Origin: an uncultured Gammaproteobacteria bacterium
Lineage (GTDB): Bacteria; Patescibacteriota; Microgenomatia; CAZETR01; Amesbacteraceae
Direction of reading: 5' to 3'
Assembly: GCA_964633995.1 (NCBI GenBank)
Contig: CAZWKN010000004.1
Coordinates: 1,260 to 65,259 of the forward strand
Length of the DNA stretch: 64,000 nucleotides
The translations under genes and the position numbers were made by a program. Numbering within the stretch: position 1 is the first letter of the stretch; every line of letters begins with the position of its first letter. Positions 1,574 through 38,872 of the stretch are shown in pieces. The notes beneath the pieces are model-generated. The model saw only the letters and a list, made by a program, of their open reading frames with translations. It had not been told where the DNA came from and searched no databases.

Positions 1574-1606
1574 TGAGCTAATATCTATTATAAATTATAA
1601 TGCAAG

Positions 1607-3285: not shown

Positions 3286-4485
3286 ATGGACACAATTGAA
3301 TTATTTAAATCGGCCACCAGGGCGATAAGAACTAATAAGACCAGATCGTTTTTGACGACGTTGGGAATTATTATTGGTGTGGCGTCGGTAATTTTGTTGG
3401 TATCTATCGGGTCTGGACTGCAAAGTTTTGTGACCAAAGAGTTTGAGTCTTTGGGGTCGAACATATTGTTTATTTCACCCGGTAAGGTAAGTTTTTCCGG
3501 TGGTCCGCCTCAAAACGTAGAAGCCAAATTTGATTTCGAGGACGTAAAAAATATCAGCAATATGGGAGGGCCTATTGTGAAAGCAGCGGGAATGATTGCT
3601 AAGGGATCGACTATCAAATATAAATCTAAGTCGTATTACGGTAACATAGCCGGGACAAACGAATCTTATTTAGAGTATGGGAATGTCAAAATAGAGAGTG
3701 GAAAATTTTTTGGTAAAAACGATGTGGAGAGAAGTGCTCTGGTGGCGGTAATAGGGCACAAAATTTATACTGAGTTATTTGCCTCGGGGGAAAACGCCGT
3801 TGGTAAGCAAATTAGTGTTGTTGGAGCCAAGTTGACAGTGATAGGGGTTTTGCAGGAAAAGGGTGGGGGGTTGGGGGGTGCATCTGATGATAATTCGTAT
3901 GTGGTAATGCCGGTGACGACGGTAAGTAAAATCACCGGGATTAAAAAACCGGCTGCTGTGATGGTAAGGACGCAAACCGCCGATGATACTGGAAGGGCGG
4001 CCAGTATGATCAAGAAATATTTCTATAGAAGAGACTTGACCGATGACGACTTTACGATCATGGAGCCTAAAGAATTGTTGAGTTCGATAAATCAATTTTT
4101 GGGAGTAGTGACTGGGGCGCTGTCGGGAATTGCTGCGATTTCTTTGGTAGTGGGCGGGATTGGGATTGCTAATATTATGTTGGTATCAGTAACCGAAAGA
4201 ACAAGAGAGATTGGACTTCGTAAAGCATTGGGGGCGACTAATGCTGATATTTTGAGACAATTTTTGATTGAATCGGTTTTGTTGTCGGTGTTGGGAGGAG
4301 GGATTGGAATTGGAATTGGATGGGGGTTCTCGTTGCTTCTTAAAAAGTTTATTGAGACGTCTGTGACTTCCCAGTCTGTAATTATGGCGTTTGGTATATC
4401 TGCAATTGTTGGGGTGTTGTCAGGAATTTTACCCGCTTTGCGGGCGTCGAGACTCAATCCAATTGAGGCTTTGAGGTGGGAGTAA
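3286..4485 (+). CDS. ABC transporter permease (FtsX/MacB-like, 4 TM with large periplasmic domain)
   Basis: MacB_PCD-like periplasmic domain and FtsX C-terminal TM bundle (REIGLRKALGA motif). Adjacent to the ATPase. Confidence 0.85.
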   Translation: MDTIELFKSATRAIRTNKTRSFLTTLGIIIGVASVILLVSIGSGLQSFVTKEFESLGSNILFISPGKVSFSGGPPQNVEAKFDFEDVKNISNMGGPIVKAAGMIAKGSTIKYKSKSYYGNIAGTNESYLEYGNVKIESGKFFGKNDVERSALVAVIGHKIYTELFASGENAVGKQISVVGAKLTVIGVLQEKGGGLGGASDDNSYVVMPVTTVSKITGIKKPAAVMVRTQTADDTGRAASMIKKYFYRRDLTDDDFTIMEPKELLSSINQFLGVVTGALSGIAAISLVVGGIGIANIMLVSVTERTREIGLRKALGATNADILRQFLIESVLLSVLGGGIGIGIGWGFSLLLKKFIETSVTSQSVIMAFGISAIVGVLSGILPALRASRLNPIEALRWE

Positions 4486-6354: not shown

Positions 6355-6428
6355 GGGCCCGTAGTTCACCTGGCTAGAACGCGTCATTTGCAATGACGAG
6401 GTAAGCGGTTCGAGTCCGCTCGGGTCCA
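6355..6428 (+). tRNA. tRNA-Ala (anticodon TGC)
   Basis: Acceptor GGGCCCG/CGGGTCC with a G3:U70 pair, anticodon loop tTTGCAa, T-loop TTCGAGT. Confidence 0.9.
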
Positions 6429-7020
6429 CTAAACCTAAAAGTTGGTCCCGACTTCCTCTTGTGGGGAGTCGAGATCAGCTTTGAGGCTGAATCTGGCGAA
6501 ATCCAGATGAGTAGCTCATTGAAAAGTGAAGAGAATTTAATAAGTAGTAGAGTCGTATTTTTTACTTCCGTAATGCAGACAATGGATGCCTAGGATGCTA
6601 GAGCCGAAGAAGGACGTACATAGCCACGAAAGTCGTCGGGGAGCTGCTAAGAAGCTTTGATCCGGCGGTATCCGAATGGGGAAACCCCTCCTATATGGAG
6701 AGTCCGCCGTAAGGCGAGATGGGGCACGTCCCGAACTGAAACATCTAAGTAGGGACAGGAAAAGAAATCACAGAGATTCCGTAAGTAAGCAGCGAGCGAA
6801 AGCGGAACAGCCTAAACCACGCCGCAAGGCGATGGGGTTGCGGGGTCCGCCGCAAGCAATTGATCGAGGATAGGAGAATCCCGTGGAAACGGGAACCAAA
6901 GCAGGTGATAGTCCTTTATCCGAAATCTAAGATCATGCTGGCGGATTCCCAAGTACCATGAGACACACGATCTTGTGGGAATCCGGGGTGACCACACTCC
7001 AAGGCTAAATACTTTAGCAT

Positions 7021-7061
<41 letters not shown>

Positions 7062-7751
7062 GGGTTAAAAACCTAGTGAAATAGAACCTGAAATTGTCTG
7101 CTGGCAAACAGTGAGAGCCCTGTCCCGCAAGGGGTGGGGTGATCGCGTGCCTATTGAAGAATTATCCGGCGAGTTTTCGATTGTTGCGAGTTTAAGCACG
7201 TCAAACGTGTGGAGGCGAAGCGAAAGCGAGTCTTAACAGGGCGCATAGCAGCAGTTGGAAGACCCGAAACCTGGTGAGCTAATCATGAGCAGGGTGAACC
7301 CCGATGAGAATCGGGGGGAGGCCCGAACTCGTTAGAGCTACAAATCTATGAGATGACTTGTGATTAGAGGTAATATGCCAATCGAACCAGGAGATAGCTG
7401 GCTCTCCCCGAAATATATATAGGTATAGCCCTAAAGCCAACTGATATGTGGTAGAGCACTGGATGCTTTCTGCAGCTTCACCGCTGTTGCGAGCAATCAA
7501 ACTCCGAATACGTATCAGAGTGCTTTGGGAGTCAGAACGACCCGGCTAAGCGGGCCGCTCTAAAGGGAAACAACCCAGACTGTCGTCTAAGGCCTCTAAA
7601 TAATGACTTAGTGTTGAACGCAGTTGAATTCCTCAGACAGCCAGGAGGTTGGCTCAGAAGCAGCCATCCTTTAAAGAAAGCGTAACAGCTCACTGGTCGA
7701 TTTGGGAGTTTGGCGCGGAAAATGAACCGAGGCTCAAGTCATTTGCCGAAG

Positions 7752-7848
7752 ACACAGATATTCGTGCTTCGCACAAAATTTATCATTTGTCATTTTACAT
7801 TTGATCATTCAATTGATGAAATGAAAAATGTTTAAATGGTTAATTTCG
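7752..7848 (+). other. AT-rich roughly 95-nt insertion in 23S helix 45 (IVS-like expansion)
   Basis: It replaces the short helix-45 tip (E. coli about 1170) between CCGAAG... and ...GGTAGGGGAGCGTT. At roughly 80% AT it contrasts with the flanking rRNA. Confidence 0.45.
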
Positions 7849-8596
7849 CGCGGAGCGCGGATGTGGTAGGGGAGCGTTGAAAGAGCTGTGAAGCATACGC
7901 CGTAAGGCGGTGTGGAGCGACTTCAAGTGAGAATGCCGGAATGAGTAGCGTTAACTCCGATGAGAATTCGGAGCGCCGAATACCCAAGGTTTCCTCCGCA
8001 ACATTTATTGTCGGAGGGTTAGTCGGCACCTAAGGTGAGGCCATAGTGGGCGTAACCGATGGACGAGCCGTTTAGATTCGGCTACATAAAATATATCGTT
8101 ATGAGCTAGGGACGGACTGAAAAGGAGTATCCAGGCGCATGCAGTGAATGTGGCGTCTAAGCAGTGAGATAGTGAACTTAGGAAAATCCGAGTTTGCGTT
8201 TTAAGTCGAGCTGTTATGGGAAGACTTGCGAGAAATTGTGAGACAACCTGGAGTGCTTCATTTTACGAGAAAATGTTCGTAGCCAGATGTATTTTATGCC
8301 GTACCGCAAACCGACACTGGTGGGTGGGTCGAGTAGACCAAGGCGTTCGGGAGAAGGTAGTTCAAGGAACTCGGCAAAAAAGCTGGACGTAATCTAGAGA
8401 GATGTCCTTCCCGCCTTTGGCGGGACGCAGCAAAAGCTTATTCCTCGACTGTTTAACTAAAACACAGGTCCATGCAAACTCGAAAGAGAAAGTATATGGG
8501 CTGAGGCCTGCCCAGTGCTCGTAAGTTAAGTGGATGGGTGTTAAAGCCCTGAAATGAAGCCCGAGTGAACGGCAGCAGTAACTATAACTGTTCTAT

Positions 8597-8638
<42 letters not shown>

Positions 8639-9148
8639 CGGCTTAACGAGGGAATAACTGTCTTGAACTATCACCCGGCGAAATTGAAATGGCTGTGAAG
8701 ATGCGGCCTAACTCTACTAGGACAAAAAGACCCTATGGAGCTTTACTGTACTCTGGCCCTGTTTCGGATTTTAAAATAGTTTAGTGTAGGAGGGAGCCTT
8801 CGGGCGACAATGAAACACCTCTCGTTTTGGAATCTCGAAACTAACCTATGCCGTCTGGAAACGACGGTGGAGACAAGGTCAGACGGGCAGTTTTACTGGG
8901 GAGGTATCCTGCTAAAGAGTAACGCAGGAGTGCCAAGGTGCTCTAAGCTCGGATGGAAATCGAGCTAGTCGTGTAACGGCATAAGAGCGCTTGACTGCGA
9001 GAGGGACACCTCGAGCAGGTGCGAAAGCAGGTCGTAGTGATCCTCGGATCCCTCGTGGGAGGGACCGGGCTTAACGGATAAAAGCTACCCTAGGGATAAC
9101 AGGCTGATCGCCGCCAAGAGTCCATATCGACGCGGCGGTTTGGCACCT

Positions 9149-9433
9149 TAACCAAATGGTATCGGGGTGTGTTGCCAGTAATGGCATTAGCAAGCTTTGT
9201 TATATGTATAATATTTTTTACTGACTCATATCGGAGAACTCCTTATAAAACGAACAATATAAGGAAAACCCCGAGGGAAGGCCGCCTATGGCGGCCCCCG
9301 TATCGACTTGTGGTTTCAAGACCACGGAGCCGTCTTTTTTAAGACGAGCTAAGACGTCAGCCCCTACTTTGGGTGAATTAACTTAAAGAGGGTGAAGGTA
9401 TAGTCAGCGCTTCGTGTAAACGAAGTCGACACG
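9149..9433 (+). ncRNA. candidate group I intron in 23S rRNA at the E. coli U2500-equivalent site
   Basis: The 285-nt insert exactly splits the conserved GGCACCU|CGAUGUCGG. The 5' exon ends in U and the insert ends in G. An internal guide GGGTG (9164-9168) can pair with exon CACCU with a U.G wobble at the splice site. No ORF is present. Confidence 0.5.
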
Positions 9434-9501
9434 CGATGTCGGCTCATCCTATCCTGGAGGGGCAGTACCTTCCAAGGGTCCGGCTGTTCGCCGGTTAAAA
9501 G

Positions 9502-9550
<49 letters not shown>

Positions 9551-9668
9551 AGTAGAATCGTGGAATTCTTGAGGGGGTCTGACCTCAGTACGAGAGGACC
9601 AGGTTGGAGGTATCACTGGTGTGCCGGTTGTGACGTCAGTTGCAGCGCCGGGTAGCTAAATACCTACG

Positions 9669-9701
<33 letters not shown>

Positions 9702-9902
9702 CTACCCAAGATTAGGAATTCATTCCGTCGCAAGATGGAAAAAGACCCGGGGAAGACTACCCCGTATAAGAGGCAGGCAGTGTAAGCACAGCAATGTGTT
9801 TAGCTTACCTGTACTAATCGGTCTAATGGAGTAAACTTACTAAACCCTATTACTTATTGTTCTCTTCACTTTTCAGTTAGTTACTTGCAAAGAGCGCAGA
9901 GT

Positions 9903-10022
9903 TCTTAGGTCATTTGAGCGGCGTGGAACTACCTTTTTCCATTCCGAACAGAGCCGTAAAACGCGCCAGCGCTGAAAATAGCTAGGGGGCAACTCCTCGT
10001 GAAGATAGGTCATGGCCTAAGA
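9903..10022 (+). rRNA. rrf: 5S ribosomal RNA
   Basis: Helix I is TCTTAGGTCAT/ATGGCCTAAGA and the conserved CCGAAC...GAAGATAGG loop motifs are present. It lies 44 nt after the 23S 3' end. Confidence 0.85.
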
Positions 10023-23263: not shown

Positions 23264-23497
23264 ATGGACAAAAAATTGCTGAAAGAAAAACTGGAAAAAT
23301 TAAAAAAGGATTTAATTCAGCTGGAGACGGTCGAAGCCGAAAAAATAAGACTGAAGCGGATTGAGGCGGATATGGAAGATGATTACAGAGAGAATGAGTA
23401 TGCAAAGATGGTGATGGGGGACCATGATCTGTTGTGGGTTAGAAAGTTGGAATTAAAGAGGGAGATAGTTAAGTTGAAAAAGATGCTTCTTACTTGA
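23264..23497 (+). CDS. small coiled-coil protein (77 aa)
   Basis: Charged heptad-rich ORF with no known motif. Confidence 0.4.
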   Translation: MDKKLLKEKLEKLKKDLIQLETVEAEKIRLKRIEADMEDDYRENEYAKMVMGDHDLLWVRKLELKREIVKLKKMLLT

Positions 23498-24776
23498 CCC
23501 AGATAGCTTGGTCTGAAACGGTGGTGTCAAAGGGGCCGGTTACGGCGCATGAATTGGTATCGGCGACCTGGTTGGTCTTGAGGGACAGGATGTATTTGCT
23601 ATCTGAAGACCAGATTTGGGCTGGGATTGTGGTGGAATACGTAAAATTGGTATAGTCACAGTCAGAAATAAGGTCGCCGCTTAAGGAGTAGGTTTTAAAG
23701 CCTTTGTATGGAAGGAGTACTTTGTCCGATCCGGGGTTGGGAATAGGTACAGAGGAGGTATTTGGTGTATGTCTGTTAAAGAAAAACGAGTCGCCTGATT
23801 TAGTATTGAGATTAAAGGAATATAAGGGGTTTTCGTCGATATTGGGATCGTAAGAATCTTTTTTAAAGTTAAGATATGCAAATGACGGATTGACAGAATT
23901 GAAAGAAATAAGTTCGCCATAAGGTTTCCTGTCGGTTGAACTTTCGGCCAATAATAGTTTCTCCTTGGTTTGGGAGTCGAACAGTATTAATTGGTTGAGA
24001 CTGTTGTAGAGGGTGATGTAGCGGTTATCAGGTGAATAATGGTGAGATGCGGGGTTAAGCTGGTCGGTGACCTTGACAACATTATTTCCGGAATACTCAC
24101 TTTCGTACAAGACTCCGTTTTGAATGTATGAAACTTTGGGTTTGTTGGGAATAAAGACAAGAGAGCCTTCGGAGGCAATATCGACAAGCCTTCTTTTGGT
24201 GGTCATATCAAATAAGGTGTTGGATTTACCAGAATTCCAAACATTGAGATACAAGTTATCGGCCGACCAGGTGGGATGGCTTGGGATTTGGTCTGGCGGG
24301 GTGATAAATTCGGTTAACGGAGCAAGTGTGTTGGCAAGATCTAATACTTTAAGACCTGAAACTTCGGATGAGCCGAAAATAATGGCCAGAAGTTGGCGAT
24401 TTGGGGAGAGTGACAGTTCCAAAACGGGGGACTTTACGTCTAGTAATAGGGATTTTCTGGGTCCTTCGGGAGTAAAATTGATGAGCCAAAGTTGATTATC
24501 GGAAACGGTTATAAGTTGGTGGCCGGAGAGTGCGGTTAGGGGAAGTCTGTTTATGGATGGAGGAGGGGGGTTGGTTGTAAGAGTAGGAATAGGAGATGGG
24601 GAATTTGATGAGGTGGGGAGTGTGGAGGTGGGTTTGGGTCTTGGTTTCGAACCATTTTTAATCAAGGACAATAGGATAATAAGTAATAATAAAATGGCGA
24701 GAATGCCACCGAGAATAGGAAAGAAAAGTTTGGGGATTTTGAGCATGGCGAAGGGGTTTGTGGACGGCAGTTCCAT
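23490..24776 (-). CDS. membrane-anchored beta-propeller (TolB/PD40-like) protein with Pro/Thr-rich stalk
   Basis: N-terminal TM, PT-rich linker, and repeated approximately 40-aa beta-strand blocks. Confidence 0.5.
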   Translation of the reverse strand: MELPSTNPFAMLKIPKLFFPILGGILAILLLLIILLSLIKNGSKPRPKPTSTLPTSSNSPSPIPTLTTNPPPPSINRLPLTALSGHQLITVSDNQLWLINFTPEGPRKSLLLDVKSPVLELSLSPNRQLLAIIFGSSEVSGLKVLDLANTLAPLTEFITPPDQIPSHPTWSADNLYLNVWNSGKSNTLFDMTTKRRLVDIASEGSLVFIPNKPKVSYIQNGVLYESEYSGNNVVKVTDQLNPASHHYSPDNRYITLYNSLNQLILFDSQTKEKLLLAESSTDRKPYGELISFNSVNPSFAYLNFKKDSYDPNIDENPLYSFNLNTKSGDSFFFNRHTPNTSSVPIPNPGSDKVLLPYKGFKTYSLSGDLISDCDYTNFTYSTTIPAQIWSSDSKYILSLKTNQVADTNSCAVTGPFDTTVSDQAIWVK

Positions 24777-24785
24777 GGAGTTACT

Positions 24786-25784
24786 TTAGACTATTTTGAC
24801 TTCGTATTCCAGGTCGATGTCAAAATGTTTTTTAACATCTGCGCGCATGAGTTCGGAATAATTATAAATTTCTTGACCAGAGGCTCCGCCTAGGTTGATG
24901 ATGTTTAGAGCTTGGTTTGGCGATGTGGAAACTTTGCCAATTTTCTTTCCTTTCCAGCCTAATTCATCTACTACTCTGGCGACAGAAAGTTTGACGTATT
25001 TATCCTGCGTATTGGGATCCGTATATGAAAGTCTGTCGACGGGGTAAGCCAAAAGGTCCGGAACTTGAGTTTGCAGGTGGATAAATTTTTCTTTGGTAAT
25101 AATCGGGTTTTTAAAAAATGAACCGGCAGTACCTACCCTTTTTATGTCTGGGAGTTTGTCTGTGCGGATTTTGATAACGGCGTTAAAAATGTCTCTAATA
25201 GTGAACGGCTCTTTGGCTATTTGTTCTAGGGTTGGAAGTAATGAAGCGTGGCGTGTGGCGCGATATGAGGTTTCCAGGTGAGGAATTTTGGAAAGACGGT
25301 AGGTGGTTGATGTAACTAATAATTCAGGGTGGTTTTTGAAATAACTGTCGCGGTAAGAAAATTGACAATCTGATTTTTGAAAAGTTTGAGAGGAAGTTTG
25401 GACACTAACGAGGACATCTTCCTGGTTTTGGCCGTAGGCGGCGATGTTGCCTATCACGGCGCCACCGACGGTGCCTGGGATTAAGGCCATGTTTTCCAGC
25501 CCAGAGAGATTGTGGTCGACAGACCAGGTGACTAAATCGTGCCAGTTTTGGCCTGCAGCGGTTTCTATTAAAACATCAGTGTCTGTTTCTTTAATAACTT
25601 TAATACCGGAGAAATTTATTTTAACGACGGTACCTAGAAAGTTTTTAGTAAACAGAATGTTGGCGCCGCCACCGAGAAATAAAATTGGTTCGTCTTTGGG
25701 AAGATCATTGGGATTATTTAACTCGATGAAGTTGTTGGCATTAGCGTGGACGCGGAGGGTGTTGTAGGGGAAAAGATCTATCAT
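24786..25784 (-). CDS. murB: UDP-N-acetylenolpyruvoylglucosamine reductase
   Basis: FAD-binding PxNT...ILGxGSNxLF-like block (PYNTLRV...FLGGGANILF) and LENMALIPGTVGGAVIGNIAAYG. Start chosen at the internal ATG (MIDLF) abutting the murA stop, rather than the 98-nt-overlapping upstream ATG. Confidence 0.8.
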   Translation of the reverse strand: MIDLFPYNTLRVHANANNFIELNNPNDLPKDEPILFLGGGANILFTKNFLGTVVKINFSGIKVIKETDTDVLIETAAGQNWHDLVTWSVDHNLSGLENMALIPGTVGGAVIGNIAAYGQNQEDVLVSVQTSSQTFQKSDCQFSYRDSYFKNHPELLVTSTTYRLSKIPHLETSYRATRHASLLPTLEQIAKEPFTIRDIFNAVIKIRTDKLPDIKRVGTAGSFFKNPIITKEKFIHLQTQVPDLLAYPVDRLSYTDPNTQDKYVKLSVARVVDELGWKGKKIGKVSTSPNQALNIINLGGASGQEIYNYSELMRADVKKHFDIDLEYEVKIV

Positions 25785-25785
25785 G

Positions 25786-27075
25786 CTAGGATTCTTGAAT
25801 GACTGCCCCAAGGGATTTGAGATTGTTAACAAAGTTGGGATGACCGCGGTGAATAGCGTCTGCATTTTGAATGACGGTTTCACCTGTAGCGATCATGGCG
25901 GCCATGGCCATGCTGATGACGGCTCTGATAATGTAGGGAGCTTCCAGTTTGGTGCCGGAAAGTTTGTTGCCGCCGGTTGCAATAACACGGTGTGGGTCGC
26001 ACATGAGAATATTGGCACCGAGTTTGGTAAGTTCCGATGTCCAAAAAAGACCTGCTTCGTACATCCAGTTGTGAAACAAGACTTGTCCAGATGGGGCCGC
26101 GAGTGCCAGGGGGATAAAGAGGGGAAGCATGTCGACAGGAAGGGCGGGCCAGGGTTGGGCGCGGATGATCAAGGGGGATGTGGATTTGGTAATGGTTGGA
26201 GTTTGGCCGGATGCGATGGTGGCCGTATCGGCGTCATAGGTAATTTTGATCCCAAATTTGGCAAATTCCCGATTTATACTAATGGAATGGCCGGGTAGAC
26301 TTTTTTTGACTTTGATTTGGCCGTCGGTAATGGCCCCCAGGGCAAGAAAAGTTCCGATTTCGTAAATGTCGGAGATTACGGTGTATGGTATGGGGGATAA
26401 GGGATGGCCGCCTTCGATGGTAAGAATGTTTGATCCAATGCCAGAAATTTTGGCTCCGGCAAGGTTGAGAAAATTACAGAGTTCCTGTACATGTGGTTCA
26501 CTGGCTGCATGGGTAATCGTGGTGGTGCCGTGTAGGGTGACAGCTAGCATGATGGTGTTTTCCGTGGCGGTGGGACTGGCTTCCAGGAGCCAAACCTGGC
26601 CTGGCTTGGCGCTCGTGGCGTCAAAGATAACTCCGGAAGCGGTGACGTTGACCTTTACCCCTAGGTCTAAAAATGCTTGATAATGGGCATCTATAGGACG
26701 GGCGCCTAAGGTGCATCCAGCTGGTTGTTCTGAGCTTTCGGCTTTTTGGAATCTACCCAACATTGGGCCCCAAAGTAGAGTCGTCCCCCGGATACCCTTG
26801 CCGGTGCCGACGTCGTTTTTATCTAAGGGGTCATATCTGACGGAGGAATTATCGATGGTTAGAGTGCAGGTTTTTTTGTTCCAGTCAATGTTGCTTCCGA
26901 GCCCCATTAGAATAGTTACCAACCTTTGAACATCAGTAATATCGGGGACATTGGTTAGGGTGACTGGTTTGTCAAAAAGAAGGGTGGCTGGGATGAGGGC
27001 GACAATTGAGTTTTTGGAACCTGAGGGAGTAATTTCTCCAGAAAGTTTCTGTCCACCCAGGATAGTGAGATTCAT
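25786..27075 (-). CDS. murA: UDP-N-acetylglucosamine 1-carboxyvinyltransferase
   Basis: N-terminus LTILGGQKLSGEITPSGSKNS. EPSP-synthase fold with the active-site Cys loop region conserved. Confidence 0.95.
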   Translation of the reverse strand: MNLTILGGQKLSGEITPSGSKNSIVALIPATLLFDKPVTLTNVPDITDVQRLVTILMGLGSNIDWNKKTCTLTIDNSSVRYDPLDKNDVGTGKGIRGTTLLWGPMLGRFQKAESSEQPAGCTLGARPIDAHYQAFLDLGVKVNVTASGVIFDATSAKPGQVWLLEASPTATENTIMLAVTLHGTTTITHAASEPHVQELCNFLNLAGAKISGIGSNILTIEGGHPLSPIPYTVISDIYEIGTFLALGAITDGQIKVKKSLPGHSISINREFAKFGIKITYDADTATIASGQTPTITKSTSPLIIRAQPWPALPVDMLPLFIPLALAAPSGQVLFHNWMYEAGLFWTSELTKLGANILMCDPHRVIATGGNKLSGTKLEAPYIIRAVISMAMAAMIATGETVIQNADAIHRGHPNFVNNLKSLGAVIQES

Positions 27076-27111: not shown

Positions 27112-27951
27112 ATGGGAATAAGTAAGGTTGTTGTATCGACTCTCAGAAGTCATCCAATGCAATTGCCCACGAGTGAAGAAATAAAACAAATGATGGCTAT
27201 TGAGGCGAAGTGTGATCCTTCAACATCAAAACACTTTCCGGATTTTTCTGTGGCTAATGAATGGTTAGAATTGTTGAAGGTTGAGTCGGATTTATTTTTA
27301 AAGTTTTCTTCTATTGTAGAAACTAACGATGAGGTTGAAAAAATTAAATCAGTGGTAGTCGAGAGAACCCTAAGAGAAAGGCCGATGAGTTTATTTAATA
27401 AGATAGAAGGTTATTTGGGTGAAGAAGATAAACTGGAAAAATGTGAGGTGGCGATTGTGTTTGGTGGAAAAACACTGTCTAGGGCAAATAAGGGTGCGCA
27501 AATGTATTTGGATGGATGGGTTGAAAAATTACTAATGACAGGAAAAGGGCCGGTTTATAAGGGGGTTTTTAAAGAACCAGAAGCAATCGTATTTAAAAAG
27601 AGGGCAATGGAATTGGGTGTTTCAGAAGAGAAAATATTAACCGAGTGTGAATCGATAAATATTCCCAGTAACGTCAGGGCAAGTCTAAATTTGCTTGATG
27701 AATTGGGAATCAAATATAAAACAGTGATGCAAATTATTTCATGGTACGCAAACCGAAGAGCCTGGGTAACTCTGAAAAAGTATGTTGAGCCAGGAGTTCG
27801 GATAATAAGAGTAAATCCGGATTTACCAAAAAATGATGGTAAGCCGAACGGTTACGATAGGGGTGAGTGGTACAAAACTGGGGAAGGGATAGAAATAGTT
27901 TTTAATGAGTTTGTGAAGATGGTGCATCAAGTGGTGACTGATGCTGCGTGA
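27112..27951 (+). CDS. DUF218 (YdcF/ElyC/SanA-family) protein
   Basis: CEVAIVFGGKTLSRANKGAQMYLDGWVEKLLMTGKGP matches the DUF218 core. Confidence 0.6.
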   Translation: MGISKVVVSTLRSHPMQLPTSEEIKQMMAIEAKCDPSTSKHFPDFSVANEWLELLKVESDLFLKFSSIVETNDEVEKIKSVVVERTLRERPMSLFNKIEGYLGEEDKLEKCEVAIVFGGKTLSRANKGAQMYLDGWVEKLLMTGKGPVYKGVFKEPEAIVFKKRAMELGVSEEKILTECESINIPSNVRASLNLLDELGIKYKTVMQIISWYANRRAWVTLKKYVEPGVRIIRVNPDLPKNDGKPNGYDRGEWYKTGEGIEIVFNEFVKMVHQVVTDAA

Positions 27952-29179
27952 TGTTGTCTACATATTGTTGGTATTCATCTCGGTAATCCTTGAACAGAGT
28001 GAAACTGGGGGCGGCGGGGGATAATAAGCAAACGGAGTTTTTTGGCGTGTATTCAAAAGCTAATTTGACGGCTTCGGGCATTGAGCCTGTGAACTTCACC
28101 TCGGGGGAGTCCGTTCGGCCACCCCTGAGGTGTTTGGCGCCTTCCAGGTGTTTTTGGACTTCTTGCCAAATACGTTCTCCGGTTATTGGAAATAGAATGA
28201 GGGTTTTGATGCCGGAGGAGATGATTTTTTTAGCTAATTCTTCGTAGTTTTGGTGGCGGTCGTGGCCGCCAGCTATTAAGGTTGTGGGGTGCAAAGTGTC
28301 GATAGCGGCAATGGTGGCTTCGGGAATGGTGGCCAGAGTATCGGCGTAAAATTTGATATTATTTTTTTCGGCGACAAGTTCTAGTCGGGTTTCCAGGGGC
28401 TGGAACAATTTTATTGAATTGAGAATGAATTGGCGGGGAATACCTAGGAGTTCGCCAATAATTATGCTGGGTTTGATATTGTATAGATTGTGTTCGCCCA
28501 ACAGTTGAGATTCGATCGGCTCGGGGGTAATAAGAATTTTTTTGGCTTTGGTTTGGATATCAGGTCTGGTTATTAGGTAATCTGACGTTGTTTGGTATTT
28601 GGTAATATTTAATTTGGCGTTTTTGTATTCTTCGAAATCGTTGTGATAATCAAGATGATCGGGATAAATATTTTGTAAGACGGCGATGTGAGGAGAGACT
28701 GTTAAGTCTAATAATTGATACGAAGAAAGTTCACAGACTACCCAAGTTTCAGGTGTAATTTCATCTAGGTAATCTAAAGCGGGTTTTCCAATATTACCGA
28801 CCAAAACCGTGGGAAAGTGATCTTTGAGAACATGATAAATTAGAGAGGTAGTTGTGGATTTGCCTTTGGTGCCAGTGACGCCAATTGTATTTTTACTGGG
28901 GCAGACTTCGAAAAAGATTTGCATGTGAGAAGTAAATATAATTCCGGCTTTTTTAGCGGCAATGATTTCAGGTTTGTGAGGAGAGATGCCGGGGGTCTTA
29001 ATTACTAATTTGTAATTTCTAATTTCTAATAGATAGTTCGGATTGTCTATTTGATCGACATGGTCGATTTGTAAATAAGGGAATTTTTTGTGGAGAAAAT
29101 TGTAAGTGGATTGACCCTCGCGGGCGAAGCCCAAGATAAGAATTTTGTCTAGTTTGGATATTTGATCAAGAATTGGCAT
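27902..29179 (-). CDS. murD: UDP-N-acetylmuramoylalanine-D-glutamate ligase (MurD-type)
   Basis: Rossmann N-domain KILILGFAREGQS, P-loop GVTGTKGKSTTTSL and a Mur-ligase C-domain. Start set at the MPILDQ ATG just after the upstream stop. It could instead be an L-Glu-adding MurD2 (see findings). Confidence 0.85.
   Translation of the reverse strand: MPILDQISKLDKILILGFAREGQSTYNFLHKKFPYLQIDHVDQIDNPNYLLEIRNYKLVIKTPGISPHKPEIIAAKKAGIIFTSHMQIFFEVCPSKNTIGVTGTKGKSTTTSLIYHVLKDHFPTVLVGNIGKPALDYLDEITPETWVVCELSSYQLLDLTVSPHIAVLQNIYPDHLDYHNDFEEYKNAKLNITKYQTTSDYLITRPDIQTKAKKILITPEPIESQLLGEHNLYNIKPSIIIGELLGIPRQFILNSIKLFQPLETRLELVAEKNNIKFYADTLATIPEATIAAIDTLHPTTLIAGGHDRHQNYEELAKKIISSGIKTLILFPITGERIWQEVQKHLEGAKHLRGGRTDSPEVKFTGSMPEAVKLAFEYTPKNSVCLLSPAAPSFTLFKDYRDEYQQYVDNITQHQSPLDAPSSQTH
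28999..29033. repeat. heptamer tandem array (taattac taatttg taatttc taatttc taataga) inside murD
   Basis: Five 7-nt units in frame within the murD coding sequence. Confidence 0.85.
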
Positions 29180-30329
29180 AGGCTTGGTGTAATATTTTCT
29201 CAAATTTGTCTGGCATATTGGGATTGTCCTGCCAGGAGGTAAGAATTGGGGCGAGGTTTTTGTCAAGAACAGCTTGGGCTTCGGCTCGGGTTAAGATGCA
29301 CTCGAAAGGTTTTACAATTGTAAGTTGGCTCATTTCTGACTTTGTCGGGAATCTACCAATGATTTTTACGATTTGATCGTGAGATAAAAATGGTTTTAGG
29401 AGAAGTGCGGTGGAAATGCATTTGGGACAATGGCCGCACCAGGAATTTTGTTTTTGATTTTTATTGCAACTTCTGAATTGGTCGAAATACTGGGGCATAT
29501 TGGAGAAGAGTTTGGTAATTTGGAGCTCGTAGAGTGGTCGGAGGAAGGAGAAATAGTTAACAGTTGGCAGTTGCCAGTTGTCAGTTAAGTTCTTTATATA
29601 GTTATTAAAGTCTGTTTCGAATTCGAGGGTTTTGCTGTATTGATGATTAATGGTGTGACCCAGGTATTCTACATTGCCTTCTTCGGAACTTTTTTCGCTT
29701 GATACAGCGATGTATTTGTAGCCCGGAATTAGAAAAATAAAAGCTAAAATTGCGGAGTAGGGAATATGACCTTTAAGAAAACCAGGACCGGTGATTTGAG
29801 GGTCGAGAATGCGGCGGACGATGATTGAATTCGGAAACATTTTTTCGCTAGCCGGAGTAGTGGGGTAAACGATAATTGGTTTGACATCGAAGTGATTTTT
29901 TAATAATTCATAAGTGACAATTGAGTCCTTCCCGCCCCCGATGGGAATGAGTACTTTGTCATTCATGGTCATACGATTGGCATTCGTAGGCATACGGTTG
30001 CCAAAGGAAGAAATTTTTAGAAAATCCTTTTTTGTGAAGTCGATTTTGTTTTCGTAAAAATATTGACCCATTCCTTTGAGAGTCAGTTTATGCCAGAAAG
30101 CGACCTGACTGGGAGTGAGATAGCCGGCGCGGATTTCGATTTCGGGAGAGCAGAAGAGTTTCCAATAGGAAAACATTTCGGCAATTCCCAGATGAAATAT
30201 GAAAGGAGAGTTGAGACTTGAGATATTTTCAAATATTACTTGGTGGGTGAAGCGATATTCGCCAGCTGAGTAGTTAAATTTGAATGTGTTGCCTTCAATG
30301 GAATAAGAGTTATAAACAAAAGTAGTCAT
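29166..30329 (-). CDS. PP-loop superfamily ATP pyrophosphatase, QueC-like, with roughly 120-aa N-terminal extension; function unknown
   Basis: PP-loop SGGxDS as LIPIGGGKDSIVTYELL. C-terminal Cys cluster SWCGHCPKC resembling the QueC Zn site. Start overlaps the murC stop (ATGA), and its stop lies 10 nt before the murD start. Confidence 0.7.
   Translation of the reverse strand: MTTFVYNSYSIEGNTFKFNYSAGEYRFTHQVIFENISSLNSPFIFHLGIAEMFSYWKLFCSPEIEIRAGYLTPSQVAFWHKLTLKGMGQYFYENKIDFTKKDFLKISSFGNRMPTNANRMTMNDKVLIPIGGGKDSIVTYELLKNHFDVKPIIVYPTTPASEKMFPNSIIVRRILDPQITGPGFLKGHIPYSAILAFIFLIPGYKYIAVSSEKSSEEGNVEYLGHTINHQYSKTLEFETDFNNYIKNLTDNWQLPTVNYFSFLRPLYELQITKLFSNMPQYFDQFRSCNKNQKQNSWCGHCPKCISTALLLKPFLSHDQIVKIIGRFPTKSEMSQLTIVKPFECILTRAEAQAVLDKNLAPILTSWQDNPNMPDKFEKILHQAYANS
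29554..29588. repeat. heptamer tandem array (tagttaa cagttgg cagttgc cagttgt cagttaa) inside the PP-loop gene
   Basis: Five units, with the last position of the unit drifting. Confidence 0.85.
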
Positions 30330-31618
30330 AAATTTTCTAAAATTTGACGGGAAAGTTTGTAACTATTGCCCGAGCCCATGACTAAAATTACATCACCAGG
30401 TCGGGTTTCGGTTTTTAGGGTGTTAATAATGTCTGGAAACTCTGGAATATAGCGCCCCCCTGCAACTTTGGCGATGTCTGCTCCCGAAAAATCTCCGGGG
30501 TCGGTTTCACGCGAAGCGTAGATTTTGGAGACAATGACAGAGTCTGCCTGGATCAACGAATGGTGGACATCCGTTAAGACCGCTCGAAGTCTGGAGAAGG
30601 TATGAGGTTCGATGACGGCAAATATTTTAGAGTTGGGATTTTGCTCTTTTACCCCAGCTATACTTGCTGCAAAAGCAGTTGGGTGGTTGGCGTAGTCGTC
30701 GTAAACTTTGATGCCGTTTTTCTCGCCCAGAAGTTGAATACGTCTATCGATTCCAGTGAAATTTGTGAGTGCTTGATTGGTGATGTGATCGGACACATTA
30801 AGAAGTCGAGCTAATTTAATGACACCTAAGGCATTTGATTTGTTGTGGTTACCAGGGACGCCTAAATTGCGGTCGAATTCAGATAGGGTGTAGGAAATTG
30901 AATTCTTGGGTAGTTCAAGTTTGTGAATAAGGGGGGAATCTGTATTGTAAATTAACGTGCCCCCGGGTTTTAGATTGTTTATGAATTTTTGGAATGATTC
31001 TAGTAGTCGATCTATGGTGTGGAAATATTCAGGATGGTCCATCTCGATATTGTTTAAGATGATAACGTCGGGTTTGTATGTGGCGAAGTTGTCGTAAAAT
31101 TCGTCAGCCTCTGAAATAAAATATTTACTTTTGCCGATGCGGACATTTGAGTGCCAGATGGGAACCGTAGCTCCGACTTCTACGGTCGGGTCAAGGCCGG
31201 CTGCTTCTAATAGTAAGCCTGCCATAGTAGTGGTAGTAGATTTTCCGTGAGTACCGGCGACGCAAATTAAATATTTATTTTTGTGTAAATAGTTGCCCAT
31301 GAATTCTTGCCAGGTCGTGAGAATATTTTTTTGCTTGGCAAGGATCACTTCTGGATGGGCGTCGTTTTGGTAAAAAACGGCTGGAGTGACAGCTAAAATA
31401 TCGACGTCTTTCAAGTGGTCGGCAGAGTGGCCTTGGTGGATGCTAGATGCTAGATCCTTGATTTTAGAAATATAGGGAGTATCTAAATTCAGGTCGCAGC
31501 CGGATATTTCGTAGCCTTGGGCGTGGGCAATCTGGGCAACTGCAGACATGCCTGATCCACCTATGCCCATGAAGTGGATTTTTTTGGGATTTGACACGGA
31601 GATATTATACAATGGCAC
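30326..31618 (-). CDS. murC: UDP-N-acetylmuramate-L-alanine ligase
   Basis: KIHFMGIGGSGMSAVA N-domain, P-loop AGTHGKSTTT, and a Mur-ligase C-domain. Confidence 0.9.
   Translation of the reverse strand: MPLYNISVSNPKKIHFMGIGGSGMSAVAQIAHAQGYEISGCDLNLDTPYISKIKDLASSIHQGHSADHLKDVDILAVTPAVFYQNDAHPEVILAKQKNILTTWQEFMGNYLHKNKYLICVAGTHGKSTTTTMAGLLLEAAGLDPTVEVGATVPIWHSNVRIGKSKYFISEADEFYDNFATYKPDVIILNNIEMDHPEYFHTIDRLLESFQKFINNLKPGGTLIYNTDSPLIHKLELPKNSISYTLSEFDRNLGVPGNHNKSNALGVIKLARLLNVSDHITNQALTNFTGIDRRIQLLGEKNGIKVYDDYANHPTAFAASIAGVKEQNPNSKIFAVIEPHTFSRLRAVLTDVHHSLIQADSVIVSKIYASRETDPGDFSGADIAKVAGGRYIPEFPDIINTLKTETRPGDVILVMGSGNSYKLSRQILENL
31439..31466. repeat. heptamer array (gatgcta gatgcta gatcctt gatttta) inside murC
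   Basis: Four 7-nt units. Confidence 0.75.
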
Positions 31619-31619
31619 T

Positions 31620-32660
31620 ATGCACTTCTACCTGGGATTAGTAATTTTGGCCTTTTTGGTTACGTCAGGGCTAATGGTACCGTTTATAGGTCTGTTATAT
31701 AAGCTGAGGTTTACTAGGAAAACAGAACTTAATGAGGTGAGAAAATCTGCTACAAAAGCTTTTTTGGCAATTAGGCAGATGCATGCAGTTAAGGCTGGGG
31801 TGCCGACCGGGGGTGGGATTTTGGTGGCGTTGGTGGTGGTTGTATTGTTTGCGTTTGCGTTTATGTTCCGAGAAGGGGAAGGGTCCATGGGGCCGTTGTC
31901 TGGCTATAATTTCTGGGGTGAAGTAGGTGCTTTGGTTGTGACATTTTTAGGGTTTGGGCTGTTGGGTTTTTACGACGATGTTATTAAAATTTTTGGATTT
32001 GCCAAAAGTAATTTTTTTGGGCTTAGGATGCGGCATAAACTGATGTTCCAGGTGGTTTTGGGGATGATTTCTGCGGGAATTTTGTGGTTGGGATTGGGAA
32101 TAGATATTGTGAATATTCCGTATATGGGGGCGGTTCATTTGGGTTGGTGGTATTTTCCCTTGGCTACTTTTTTAATTGTCGGGTTTGCGAATGCGTTTGA
32201 TTTTACGGATGGATTGGATGGATTATCGTGTGGCTTACTTATGGTTTGCCTATTGGCCTTTTGGGTTATTTCGGTTGCAGCACTAGACCATGTGCTTTCG
32301 GTTTTTATAGCACTATGGTTGGGGGGATTACTTGCTTTTTTGTATTTCAATATTTTTCCGGCTCGAATAATGCTTGGAAACATGGGAGGGCTAGCGTTTG
32401 GGGCAACTTTGGCAGTGGTCGGGTTGCTGTCTGGAAAAATGGTTGCTATGTTGGTAATTGGGGGTGTGTTTTTGGCAGAGGGAATGAGTAGTTTGTTGCA
32501 GTTGTTTAGCAAAAAATTTATGAAAAAACGACTATTTCCGATTGCACCACTCCATCATTGGTTGCAGTTGATCGGCTGGGAAGAGCCGAAAATTGTAGCT
32601 CGGGCGTGGCTGGTTGGATTGATGTTGGCAATATTTGGTGTTTGGCTGGCGTTTTTATGA
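31620..32660 (+). CDS. mraY: phospho-N-acetylmuramoyl-pentapeptide transferase
   Basis: MraY signature loops (NAFDFTDGLDGL, GNMGGLAFGATLA, APLHHWL). Start set at the MHFYLG ATG. The annotated upstream ATG would overlap divergent murC by 70 nt. Confidence 0.85.
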   Translation: MHFYLGLVILAFLVTSGLMVPFIGLLYKLRFTRKTELNEVRKSATKAFLAIRQMHAVKAGVPTGGGILVALVVVVLFAFAFMFREGEGSMGPLSGYNFWGEVGALVVTFLGFGLLGFYDDVIKIFGFAKSNFFGLRMRHKLMFQVVLGMISAGILWLGLGIDIVNIPYMGAVHLGWWYFPLATFLIVGFANAFDFTDGLDGLSCGLLMVCLLAFWVISVAALDHVLSVFIALWLGGLLAFLYFNIFPARIMLGNMGGLAFGATLAVVGLLSGKMVAMLVIGGVFLAEGMSSLLQLFSKKFMKKRLFPIAPLHHWLQLIGWEEPKIVARAWLVGLMLAIFGVWLAFL

Positions 32661-33811
32661 TGAGAAGGTTAAAAAATTTGTGGCATTTGATGCATGCGTG
32701 GTATTGGGTGATTAGATGTGGATATCCGGCTAAGGATTTGTATGTAATAGGCGTGACTGGAACGGATGGTAAAACGACAACGACGACTTTGATATATGAA
32801 ATTCTAAAAGCGGCGGGTTTTAAAGTTGGGTATTTGACTACGGTTAATTCACACGGTTTGCATACTACAAATCCAGGTCCGGAAGAATTACAACCAATGT
32901 TGGCGGAAATGAAAAACTCTGGAATAACTCATGTAGTGTTAGAAGTTACCAGTCATGGACTAGATCAAAACAGAGTGGTGGGGTGTAATTTTAAAATTGG
33001 GGTTTTAACTAATATTACACATGAACATTTGGATTATCATGGGACGATGGAAAAATATATCGCAGCAAAATTGAAGTTGTTTAAGAAAGTTAAGTATGCG
33101 GTATTGCCAAGTTTTCAGTTTTCAGTTTTCAATTCTCAGTTAAATACAAATGTACAAAGTGTTAAATACGATAAAACGGCAATAAAGAATGTTAGTCCGG
33201 CTCTGGAGGGGGATTATAATAAATATAATATTGGAGCAGCAGCCGCCGTGGCAGACATATTAAAAATTGATAAGTCATTAAGTCATAAAGTCATTAGGTC
33301 ATTTTCTGGGGTGGAGGGGAGACGGCAGGAGGTGGATGTGGGGCAAAAGTTTAGGGTAATTGTAGATTTTGCACATACGCCCAATGCGTTGGAACAAGTA
33401 TTAAAATCGTTTCGGAGCAGTCGAGGTAGGTTGATTGTAGTATTTGGGTGTACCGGGGAGAGGGATAAAGCGAAAAGACCTATGATGGGGCAAGTAGCTG
33501 TGGAACTGGCGGATGAGGTAATAATAACCTCAGACGATACCCGATCGGAGAATCAGGACACTATATACAATCAGATAGTATCAGGGATTAAGTATCAAGA
33601 ATTAAGCATGAGGAAAATACATAAAATTAACGATAGGAGAACGGCAATCGAGGAGGCGATAAAAATGGCTAAACCAAACGATACTGTTTTGTTGGCCGGA
33701 AAGGGGCACGAGAAGTCAATTTTGATTGGCAAAACTGAGGTGCCGTGGTCTGATGTTGAGGAAGCTAAGCGGGCAATCCTTCCTGCCGGCAGGCAGGTTT
33801 TGCATAAGTAA
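32657..33811 (+). CDS. murE: MurE-like Mur ligase lacking the N-terminal UDP-binding domain (384 aa)
   Basis: P-loop GVTGTDGKTTTT only about 35 aa from the start. Middle domain THEHLDYHG. C-domain DFAHTPNA, VFGCTGERDKAKRPMMG, TSDDTRSE (DNPR-equivalent). ATGA overlap with the mraY stop. Confidence 0.75.
   Translation: MMRRLKNLWHLMHAWYWVIRCGYPAKDLYVIGVTGTDGKTTTTTLIYEILKAAGFKVGYLTTVNSHGLHTTNPGPEELQPMLAEMKNSGITHVVLEVTSHGLDQNRVVGCNFKIGVLTNITHEHLDYHGTMEKYIAAKLKLFKKVKYAVLPSFQFSVFNSQLNTNVQSVKYDKTAIKNVSPALEGDYNKYNIGAAAAVADILKIDKSLSHKVIRSFSGVEGRRQEVDVGQKFRVIVDFAHTPNALEQVLKSFRSSRGRLIVVFGCTGERDKAKRPMMGQVAVELADEVIITSDDTRSENQDTIYNQIVSGIKYQELSMRKIHKINDRRTAIEEAIKMAKPNDTVLLAGKGHEKSILIGKTEVPWSDVEEAKRAILPAGRQVLHK
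33110..33144. repeat. heptamer array (agttttc x3, aattctc, agttaaa) inside murE
   Basis: Encodes PSFQFSVFNSQ in an interdomain region. Confidence 0.85.
33271..33302. repeat. octamer array (taagtcat taagtcat aaagtcat taggtcat) inside murE
   Basis: Four 8-nt units encoding DKSLSHKVIRSF. Confidence 0.85.
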
Positions 33812-35047: not shown

Positions 35048-35320
35048 ATGCAAGATCAAACATTAACATGCAAAGATTGTGGTAAGCCATTCGTTTGGAC
35101 AGCTGGAGAGCAAAAATTCTATCAAGAGAAAGGATTTACGAATCCTCCAACTCGATGCCCAGAGTGTCGGCAGAAAAAGAAATCTGACATGCAGGGTGGA
35201 AGAGCGAGCTTCCCAATCACTTGTAGCAATTGTGGAAAACAAGACACTGTGCCGTTTGAACCGAAAGGTGACAGGCCAGTTTTGTGCCGCGATTGTTTCA
35301 AAAACAGCAAACAAGGTTAA
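35048..35320 (+). CDS. duplicated zinc-ribbon protein (zf-trcl-like)
   Basis: CKDCGKPFVWTAGEQKFYQEKGFTNPPTRCPECR followed by a second C-x2-C...C-x2-C unit. Confidence 0.6.
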   Translation: MQDQTLTCKDCGKPFVWTAGEQKFYQEKGFTNPPTRCPECRQKKKSDMQGGRASFPITCSNCGKQDTVPFEPKGDRPVLCRDCFKNSKQG

Positions 35321-35375: not shown

Positions 35376-35379
35376 TCGG

Positions 35380-35452
35380 TGGACCCTAGGGGATTCGAAC
35401 CCCTTGCCTTCTCTATGCCATAGAGACGCTCTACCAAGTGAGCTAAGGGCCC
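35380..35452 (-). tRNA. tRNA-Ala (anticodon GGC)
   Basis: Reverse complement GGGCCCTTAGCTCACTTGGTAGAGCGTCTCTATGGCATAGAGAAGGCAAGGGGTTCGAATCCCCTAGGGTCCA. G3:U70 pair, loop aTGGCAt, canonical T-loop. Confidence 0.85.
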
Positions 35453-35800: not shown

Positions 35801-35926
35801 TGTCCTATAGTATACCAATATTTGGGGTTTTCGTCAAGTTTGGTGGACCATGGGGGAATCAGCTGCGGCCTGCACAGCAGCCCCGTATCCGCAATTTACC
35901 TACTATCTAATCTAGTGCGAATGTTG

Positions 35927-35997
35927 TGGACCCAGCCGGAATCGGACCGGCGACTGGTCGATGCGAACGACCTGGTATACCACTTGCCTATGGGCCC
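35927..35997 (-). tRNA. tRNA-Ala-like (anticodon CGC), possibly degenerate
   Basis: Reverse complement gggcccataggcaagtggtataccaggtcgttcgcatcgaccagtcgccggtccgattccggctgggtcca. G3:U70 pair and anticodon loop tTCGCAt. However, the T-loop is TCCGATT (C55) and the D-stem has a C.A mismatch. Confidence 0.5.
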
Positions 35998-38095: not shown

Positions 38096-38191
38096 TGATT
38101 ATATTAAATAGTCATTTGGTTCACTGGTCAATGGGGAGTTTGGAATGGGTCTGACCTATTGCGGAAGAGGTCTGACCTGTGTCATGATGTA

Positions 38192-38872
38192 ATTATGCCG
38201 GCCAAGTTTAGGGTGAAGTCTAATAATGAGCACACGCTATACCATATATATAATAGGGGCGTGGATGGGAGGGATGTATTTGTTGATGAGAACGATTACA
38301 CCGAATTTTTGGACACATTAAAAAAATATGTGACTAAGGTGGAAATAAAAACCGTTCCGGGTTTTAAGACATTGAAACCGTCAATGGCAGAATACATGCA
38401 GAAGATGAATTTGTCGGATCAGCTGGACATGGTAGCATATTGTATGATGTCCAATCATATTCATCTGGTGATTTATCAGAAACAATTGGACGCTATTGCC
38501 AAGCTGATGAGGAGAGTGATGACTGGGTATGGGATGTATTTTAATAAGAAATACAAGCGAAGAGGACCTTTGTGGGAGGGGGTATATAGGGCTGTGGAAA
38601 TATCGTCAGGGGAACAGCTTGTTTGTCTTACTAAATATATTCACTTAAACCCGGTAACTCGGACGGTAAGAAGGTTTGGCCCGGTCGAAACGATAACCGG
38701 TTCGTCGCCTGAGAGTTATACGTATTCAAGTTTTGGTACATATATAGGTCTAAATAATGATAAATGGGTAAATATTAAATTCGTAAATATGAATTCCGAT
38801 GAATATAAAAGATATGTGTCTGAGCACGACAATGCCTTGGAAGAGAAGCTCAAAGAGGTGAAGATCGATTAA
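38192..38872 (+). CDS. IS200-like HUH (Y1) transposase-family protein, paralog A
   Basis: YHIYNRG N-motif, HUH motif SNHIHLV, catalytic-Tyr region GVYRAVEI, and IHLNP. Paralog of the gene at 55993-56685. Confidence 0.65.
   Translation: MMPAKFRVKSNNEHTLYHIYNRGVDGRDVFVDENDYTEFLDTLKKYVTKVEIKTVPGFKTLKPSMAEYMQKMNLSDQLDMVAYCMMSNHIHLVIYQKQLDAIAKLMRRVMTGYGMYFNKKYKRRGPLWEGVYRAVEISSGEQLVCLTKYIHLNPVTRTVRRFGPVETITGSSPESYTYSSFGTYIGLNNDKWVNIKFVNMNSDEYKRYVSEHDNALEEKLKEVKID

Follow-up and report, generated by a model that had tools for sequence, protein, structure and literature searches.

A MurL-family gene between murC and murD in a Microgenomates bacterium and its probable part in an ATP-dependent route to peptidoglycan D-glutamate

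The murC-murL-murD locus and the family of its middle gene

The stretch of DNA analysed here, referred to below as the window, comprises 64,000 nucleotides of contig CAZWKN010000004.1 (assembly GCA_964633995.1, positions 1,260 to 65,259 of the forward strand) from an uncultured bacterium deposited as a gammaproteobacterium and placed by its GTDB lineage in the Amesbacteraceae, within the Microgenomatia of the Patescibacteriota. The subject is a gene on the minus strand (29166-30329, ATG start, 387 aa), designated murL below. It is located between murC, which encodes the UDP-N-acetylmuramate (UDP-MurNAc)--L-Ala ligase (30326-31618, minus; TIGR01082, 350 bits, above the cutoff), and a gene for a MurD-family ligase of 425 aa (27902-29179, minus; TIGR01087, 278 bits). 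The start codon of murC is uncertain and can be either the GTG at 31618 or a downstream ATG. At the first junction, the murC TGA and the murL ATG share bases in an ATGA at 30326-30329, as read directly from the sequence and as stated in the initial annotation of the window, which a model had made from the letters alone. That annotation also placed the murL stop 10 nt from the murD start, which needs correction: the murD ATG (29179-29177) lies upstream of the murL TGA (29168-29166), and the frames of the two genes share 14 nt. The ATG at 29179 is the most plausible start of murD, and it is also used by an independent gene call on the public copy of the contig. The embedding of the gene in a murC-X-murD operon is therefore borne out, with overlapping codons at both junctions. 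Such overlaps are consistent with a putative translational coupling of the three genes.

The protein had been regarded as an uncharacterised enzyme, and this description does not hold. In the NCBIfam scan, it matches NF041275, "MurL_Xanthmoales" (UDP-N-acetyl-alpha-D-muramoyl-L-alanyl-L-glutamate epimerase), with an E-value of 3.7e-48 and 164 bits, the alignment running from residue 53 to 357 of the protein and from position 70 to 392 of the 447 positions of the model. Two Pfam domains, PF26299 (MurL_N) and PF26298 (MurL_epimerase_C), are precomputed for an identical database protein (P0001), and the local Pfam scan gave no MurL-domain match, only sub-threshold ones to QueC and DnaI_N. The N-terminal extension of about 120 aa, for which no counterpart in known families had been seen, corresponds over its first 112 or so residues to MurL_N. 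The search against profile libraries that had been proposed as a check thus did return a known family, which is MurL in NCBIfam, while QueC stayed below its threshold. In a similar way, the initial annotation had named orthology to a known PP-loop enzyme as an outcome that would speak against its proposal; in spirit this is what was found, the enzyme being MurL and not QueC.

Relatives of the protein are numerous. A large protein database holds 3,126 homologues at E <= 1e-3, the nearest of which belong to Microgenomates and Amesbacteria (66-73% identity) and are named "hypothetical protein" in GenBank. This naming follows from the cutoff of NF041275, a model specific for the Xanthomonadales clade, which served here as a stand-in for the sequence of XOO_1319; even long MurL-MurD fusions from other phyla score just 199-286 bits on it. 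Several homologues with 41-48% identity carry the annotation MurL epimerase from the Joint Genome Institute (JGI). Among solved structures, a sequence search of the Protein Data Bank (PDB) with the single protein retrieved nothing relevant, a search with the family profile gave matches confined to the PP-loop motif of TtuA and MnmA, and no MurL relative with a solved structure was found by either. Judged by homology, the open reading frame (ORF) is a member of the MurL family and a homologue of MurL itself. It represents a known alternative cell-wall step in a little-studied group of bacteria and not a new enzyme.

Fold, conserved residues and distribution of MurL

The structure of the window MurL was modelled with AlphaFold2 from an alignment of 22 homologues, with a mean predicted local distance difference test score (pLDDT) of 92.1 and a predicted template modelling score (pTM) of 0.92. 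The first part of the protein is the MurL_N domain (residues 1-112; 29994-30329, minus), which carries the invariant SYWK motif (Y55, K57). Modelled alone, it reaches a pLDDT of 93 and folds in the order beta-beta-beta-alpha-beta-alpha, an RNase H-like topology. The invariance of Y55 and K57 across the family suggests that MurL_N may contribute to the active site or help to bind the substrate. It is followed by the PP-loop IGGGKDS (residues 130-136; 29922-29942, minus), a predicted ATP pyrophosphatase or adenylation motif, whose GGGKDS stretch is aligned by the family profile to the PP-loop of TtuA. Further downstream, four cysteines, C288, C298, C301 and C304 (SCN ... WCGHCPKC; 29418-29468, minus), form a predicted zinc site of the QueC type: WCGHCPKC occupies residues 297-304 and, together with C288, gives the spacing C-x9-C-x2-C-x2-C of the QueC zinc site. 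Zinc binding by these four residues would be expected by analogy with QueC. The last motif, KPFEC (residues 340-344; 29298-29312, minus), contains a fifth, invariant cysteine, C344, preceded by K340 and P341, which are at least 90% conserved.

Conservation was assessed in the 22 homologues and then in a set of 99 representatives, one per cluster at 50% identity. In the latter set, 19 positions are invariant, and all of them are present in the window protein: Y55, K57, G133, D135, G187, H188, P190, N228, H229, K233, S261, S287, C288, N289, C298, C301, K303, C304 and C344. N228, H229 and K233 belong to an NHQYSK motif, and within the PP-loop G132, K134 and S136 are at least 90% conserved beside the invariant G133 and D135. 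Since the PP-loop and cysteine motifs are invariant or nearly so in both sets, they are not chance matches. The initial annotation had reported both motifs (the CGHCPKC cluster lies within residues 297-304) and had proposed a QueC-like PP-loop fold, and in these points it was right, as the TtuA alignment and the QueC-type cysteine spacing indicate. These comparisons show the catalytic core of MurL to be a QueC-like PP-loop domain. Reviews from the discovering laboratory state that MurL "lacks known conserved domains" (PMC8788868, PMC5808125), and no paper tying MurL to QueC or to the PP-loop superfamily was found in the literature searched. One apparent literature match on MurL proved to be a false match to "Mur_ligase".

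The likeness to QueC has clear limits. The QueC structure compared (PDB 3bl5) shares the C-x9-C-x2-C-x2-C arrangement at the position of its zinc site and a chemistry that opens with the adenylation of a carboxylate, yet the identity is 15%. MurL adds to this core the RNase H-like N-terminal domain and a helical C-terminal region with the invariant fifth cysteine. QueC is a single-domain protein of about 220 aa found in the context of queuosine synthesis, unlike the 387-aa window protein. In addition, the substrate of MurL is a UDP-muramyl dipeptide, and the outcome is inversion followed by hydrolysis, not an amide or a nitrile. The QueC-like Cap9 of type IV CBASS (cyclic oligonucleotide-based antiphage signalling system; PDB 9nto) is different again, as it acts in anti-phage defence by modifying a cyclase and has neither a Mur context nor a MurL_N domain.

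A scan with one genome per species confirmed MurL loci in at least 588 species genomes, and the genomic context was counted in the best 80 of these loci. About 19 of them belong to Patescibacteria (Microgenomates, Beckwith-, Gottesman-, Nealson- and Kerfeldbacteria, Saccharibacteria and Parcubacteria), about 48 to Bacteroidota, mostly Bacteroidales of gut, rumen and sediment, five to Firmicutes and one to Acidobacteria; the rest are a few loosely labelled metagenome-assembled genomes. Among the matches listed, the closest is Microgenomates bacterium Gr01-1014_16, with identities of 73% for MurL, 78% for MurD and 80% for MurC, which assigns the window to a bacterium of the Microgenomates group. 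In 73 of the 80 loci, murL is followed on its own strand by a MurD-family gene. In 67 it is fused to murL or begins within about 110 nt of it, with a median gap of -4 nt, and in eight loci (L013, L014, L024, L028, L046, L048, L059 and L080) the two form a single ORF of about 770-1000 aa. The conserved murC-X-murD order that had been suggested as a check is therefore found only in part: the association of murL with murD is conserved, and the murC-murL order is local to the window, mraY preceding murL in most Patescibacteria.

Fusion to Mur enzymes is a recurrent property of the family. At E <= 1e-3, an exhaustive profile search retrieved 3,364 clusters, of which 1,561 also pass E <= 1e-30; among the best 150 representatives, 34 have a length of 740 aa or more. 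An NCBIfam scan of nine of these long proteins gave five MurL-MurD, two MurD-MurL, one MurE-MurL and one MurB-MurL fusion. All fusion partners of MurL are cytoplasmic Mur enzymes; MurD makes the substrate of MurL, and MurE consumes its product. Proteins P0121, P0128, P0137 and P0243 are listed among the natural fusions of MurL to a Mur enzyme. The published range of the pathway covers the Xanthomonadales, a few Alphaproteobacteria and the Micromonosporaceae, all without murI (PMC8788868, PMC5808125), and the papers searched contain nothing on MurL in Patescibacteria or Bacteroidales. By these counts, the spread of MurL goes far beyond what the open literature describes.

The partner ligase, the proposed pathway and its alternatives

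In the published system, each turnover of MurL costs one ATP and yields AMP, and the conversion runs from L to D only; the discoverers of the enzyme proposed that the alpha-carboxylate is adenylated, after which epimerisation and hydrolysis take place (PMC8788868, PMC5808125). The ligase acting before it, MurD2, adds L-glutamate (L-Glu) instead of D-glutamate (D-Glu). The stereospecificity of Xanthomonas oryzae MurD2 is switched by Glu197 and Arg358, which correspond to D182 and K348 of Escherichia coli MurD, and MurD2 is further characterised by Pro433 and Phe435, corresponding to A414 and L416; the K319T substitution alone makes E. coli MurD accept L-Glu (PMC8788868, PMC5808125).

These positions were examined in an alignment of 70 MurL-linked MurD proteins and the window MurD with E. 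coli MurD (PDB numbering equals gene-product numbering minus 1). The position of K348 is Arg in 69 of the 71 proteins, including that of the window. At K319, Ile or Leu is found in 69/71, and the window MurD has Leu. At L416, Phe or Tyr occupies all but one of the 71, Phe being the window residue, and the position of A414 is more variable (Ala 35, Ser 22, Pro 13), with Pro in the window protein. The fifth position, D182, is Glu in 66 of 71, and here the window MurD retains Asp (D174 of its 425 aa). The residues binding ATP and Mg (K115, N138, E157, H183, K198) are invariant across the aligned MurD proteins, and pairwise BLASTP agrees with the residue assignments in the window MurD. Its predicted pocket is thus mostly of the MurD2, L-Glu-adding type. 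A single outlier among the 71, the MurD of a Patescibacteria group bacterium (L018, approximately 7289-8590), has Asp, Lys and Ala at the positions of D182, K348 and K319, respectively; with such a canonical-looking pocket it may be a D-Glu ligase that adjoins a murL gene.

The supply of D-Glu was considered in about 45 ORFs of the window that were scanned for domains, including every plausible gene of at least 150 aa. Neither a glutamate racemase (Asp_Glu_race) nor a class-IV or D-amino-acid aminotransferase (Aminotran_4) is present among the scanned ORFs of the 64 kb, which agrees with the earlier remark that the window contains no murI-like gene. The physiological outcome of MurI is equal to that of MurL, namely D-Glu for the stem peptide of peptidoglycan. 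The two enzymes are otherwise different: MurI has the unrelated Asp/Glu racemase fold and employs a reversible two-cysteine mechanism, independent of cofactor and ATP, on free glutamate before the ligation.

Taken together, family membership, gene order and the ligase pocket argue that the window gene encodes a MurL-family epimerase of the alternative MurD2/MurL route to peptidoglycan D-Glu, with a probability of roughly 0.8. One of the three roles considered in the initial annotation was that of an ATP-dependent epimerisation partner of an L-Glu-adding MurD2, analogous to the Xanthomonas system. The role itself is supported by homology, and the word analogous has to be replaced, as the protein is a true homologue of MurL. 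With the Xanthomonas MurD2/MurL pair, the locus shares the family, the position of murL directly upstream of a MurD-family ligase and the Arg (K348), Pro (A414) and Phe (L416) of that ligase. It differs in several respects. The host belongs to the Microgenomates (Patescibacteria), outside the published range, the protein, with 387 aa, falls about 60 residues short of the 447 positions of the Xanthomonadales model, murL is inserted between murC and murD and overlaps both, and the ligase has Asp in place of Glu197.

In the proposed pathway, MurC would make UDP-MurNAc-L-Ala, and the MurD-family ligase encoded downstream would add L-Glu to it instead of D-Glu. The PP-loop domain of MurL would then adenylate the alpha-carboxylate of the terminal L-Glu, converting ATP into the acyl-AMP and PPi. 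Such an adenylation would acidify the C-alpha proton by lowering its pKa, and the inversion would proceed with the help of family-invariant residues, for which C344, H188, H229, K233 and the pair Y55/K57 are proposed. Three routes of inversion can be envisaged: direct deprotonation and reprotonation, closure onto the carbonyl of the preceding Ala to give a 5(4H)-oxazolone, or a thioester with C344. C344 is a candidate catalytic residue for the proton exchange at C-alpha, and C344 with the two histidines, H188 and H229, would be the obvious candidates for the proton transfers of the epimerase. Hydrolysis would finally free AMP and the D-product, which MurE would extend. If MurL adenylated the L-isomer selectively, its unidirectionality would be accounted for. 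An organism using the MurL/MurD2 route would presumably need no pool of free D-Glu.

Several points weigh against this assignment. First, the 164 bits of the window protein lie far under the 700-bit equivalog cutoff of NF041275, so that the case for orthology to the Xanthomonas enzyme is built on similarity at the family level and on context. Second, the absence of murI is an observation within 64 kb. Third, according to a reference cited in PMC11974145, MurI activity has been demonstrated by experiment in at least one Saccharibacterium, which means that Patescibacteria are not uniform in their source of D-Glu. The main caveat is the Asp that the window MurD keeps where MurD2 has Glu197. The E197D substitution in X. 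oryzae MurD2 shifted its stereospecificity (PMC8788868, PMC5808125), and the window ligase might accordingly take D-Glu or work with either isomer.

Of the rival readings, one alone has real weight, improbable as it is. It builds on this Asp and on the limited view of murI: the gene would still belong to the MurL family, but the ligase of this lineage would take D-Glu or either isomer, and MurL would be an auxiliary enzyme that repairs or salvages mis-incorporated L-Glu, or acts on a shifted substrate, without being obligatory. The altered stereospecificity of the E197D mutant speaks for it. Against it stand the other four pocket positions, K348R, K319L, A414P and L416F, which are all of the MurD2 type, and the observation that a change at K319 (K319T) is sufficient for E. 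coli MurD to accept L-Glu. The Asp is also shared by the closest relatives, L001 and L046. In the latter, a Microgenomates locus, MurL and the Asp-bearing MurD, whose pocket residues follow the pattern of the window MurD, form one fused ORF, which indicates that a ligase can carry this Asp and still be a partner of MurL. The 14-nt overlap of the murL and murD frames also speaks against this rival.

Less probable still is a QueC-type amidation of a stem-peptide carboxylate with ammonia, which had been offered as the first of the possible roles. The enzyme would produce isoglutamine or amidated meso-diaminopimelate at the nucleotide-precursor stage and replace MurT/GatD or AsnB/LtsA. Genes for MurT/GatD were indeed not found in the window, and MurT/GatD resembles MurL in the ATP-dependent activation of the alpha-carboxylate of the stem-peptide Glu. 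The resemblance ends there: MurT, which has the fold of the Mur ligases, proceeds through an acyl-phosphate and works with the glutaminase GatD, and the two have lipid II as their substrate and no similarity to the window protein. In that protein, no MurT/GatD or asparagine synthetase domain was matched at E <= 0.1 in Pfam and NCBIfam, and the sole glutamine amidotransferase domain found in the window is that within CTP synthase. No glutaminase partner lies nearby. The protein is instead homologous to the biochemically characterised MurL, which releases AMP and does not require ammonia. Across phyla, its conserved pairing, often as a fusion, is with a ligase of the MurD2 type; the L-Glu product of such a ligase would have to be epimerised, not amidated.

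Finally, it is highly improbable that the gene encodes a true QueC (7-cyano-7-deazaguanine synthase) or a defence homologue of the Cap9 kind placed in the mur cluster by chance. For this reading stand the PP-loop, the cysteine cluster and a Pfam QueC match (PF06508) limited to residues 244-305, which lead into the cysteine cluster; at 13.1 bits (E 0.068), the match stays below the cutoff of 22. The reading is opposed by the homology to MurL, by the conserved N-domain and C-terminal region that QueC does not have, by the lack of queD, queE, queF, tgt or CBASS genes among the window ORFs scanned, and by the conserved linkage or fusion to MurD, MurE and MurB.

Returning to the MurL/MurD2 route, a wider proposal can be put forward only tentatively, and it is rather doubtful in its full extent. 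It holds that ligation of L-Glu with subsequent ATP-dependent epimerisation is a major D-Glu route, in use among Patescibacteria, Bacteroidales and part of the Clostridia, and that MurL has fused repeatedly with MurD, MurE or MurB. MurL would be a zinc-containing PP-loop adenylating enzyme of the QueC type, in which C344 with H188, H229 and K233 would invert C-alpha, possibly via the thioester or the oxazolone, and the window ligase would add L-Glu despite its Asp. If the last part is correct, the stereospecificity rule derived from Xanthomonas would not generalise.

Significance, neighbouring genes and other features of the window

The assignment turns a "hypothetical protein" into a specific and testable step of cell-wall synthesis and would explain why no murI is needed nearby. 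The open literature limits the MurD2/MurL pathway to a few genera, whereas at least 588 species-level genomes and approximately 1,500-3,400 sequence clusters are counted here. This has consequences for the annotation of reduced genomes, in which an apparently missing source of D-Glu may be misread as dependence on a host. As a target for narrow-spectrum antibiotics, MurD2/MurL looks less narrow if Bacteroidales use the pathway. The results also bear on the design of mechanistic experiments with an unusual ATP-consuming epimerase. The QueC-like core, the wide spread and the repeated Mur fusions are of moderate interest and concern the MurL family rather than the window locus.

The other genes of precursor synthesis lie on both sides of the murC-murL-murD group. 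Divergent from murC is mraY (31548-32660, plus; Pfam Glycos_transf_4), followed by murE (32558-33811, plus; TIGR01085, 378.6 bits), whose translation probably begins at a codon downstream of the TTG at 32558. As noted in the initial annotation, this MurE is without its N-terminal domain: Pfam matches only the central and C-terminal domains and gives no match to the Mur_ligase N-domain, the central domain begins at ORF residue 66, and the BLASTP alignment with E. coli MurE begins at E. coli residue 164. The missing part is the UDP-binding domain. The MurE of the closest relative (L001) is likewise short, with a match of about 405 aa.

Downstream of murD, murA (25786-27075, minus; Pfam EPSP_synthase, 8.4e-53) and murB (24786-25883, minus; Pfam MurB_C and FAD_binding_4) are encoded. 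Between murA and murD, a DUF218 (YdcF/ElyC-like) gene lies on the opposite strand (27112-27951, plus), and its 3′ end overlaps the 3′ end of murD by 50 nt. The Logan gene calls for this contig (L082, 5146-8562, corresponding to approximately 23490-27075 of the window) contain only short antisense ORFs of 77-171 aa in a stretch that in fact covers murA, murB and an ORF of 428 aa. Given the strong Pfam support for murA and murB, these calls look like a gene-calling error.

Several features outside the mur cluster were also observed. The rRNA operon is split, tRNA-Ile(GAT) at 521-593 being separated by 5.7 kb from tRNA-Ala(TGC) at 6355-6429 and the 23S rRNA, and the interval carries HlyD-ABC-FtsX efflux genes and a TrmB-type regulator. 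The 23S rRNA (6560-9838) is 3,279 nt long against a model of 2,925 nt and, with about 350 nt extra, probably carries an insertion or an intron; the 5S rRNA follows at 9905-10021. IS200-like Y1 transposase domains occupy the C-terminal part of two ORFs (38159-38872, plus, 237 aa; 55993-57099, minus, 368 aa). A protein of 1,011 aa (60935-63970, minus) with five Laminin_G_3 (concanavalin-like lectin) repeats and N-domains resembling the receptor-binding domains of Clostridium neurotoxins is probably a surface adhesin. A 90-aa double treble-clef zinc-finger protein (35048-35320) adjoins two tRNA-Ala genes (35378-35452 and 35926-35997) with GGC and CGC anticodons, which, beside tRNA-Ala(TGC), makes three tRNA-Ala isoacceptors in the window.

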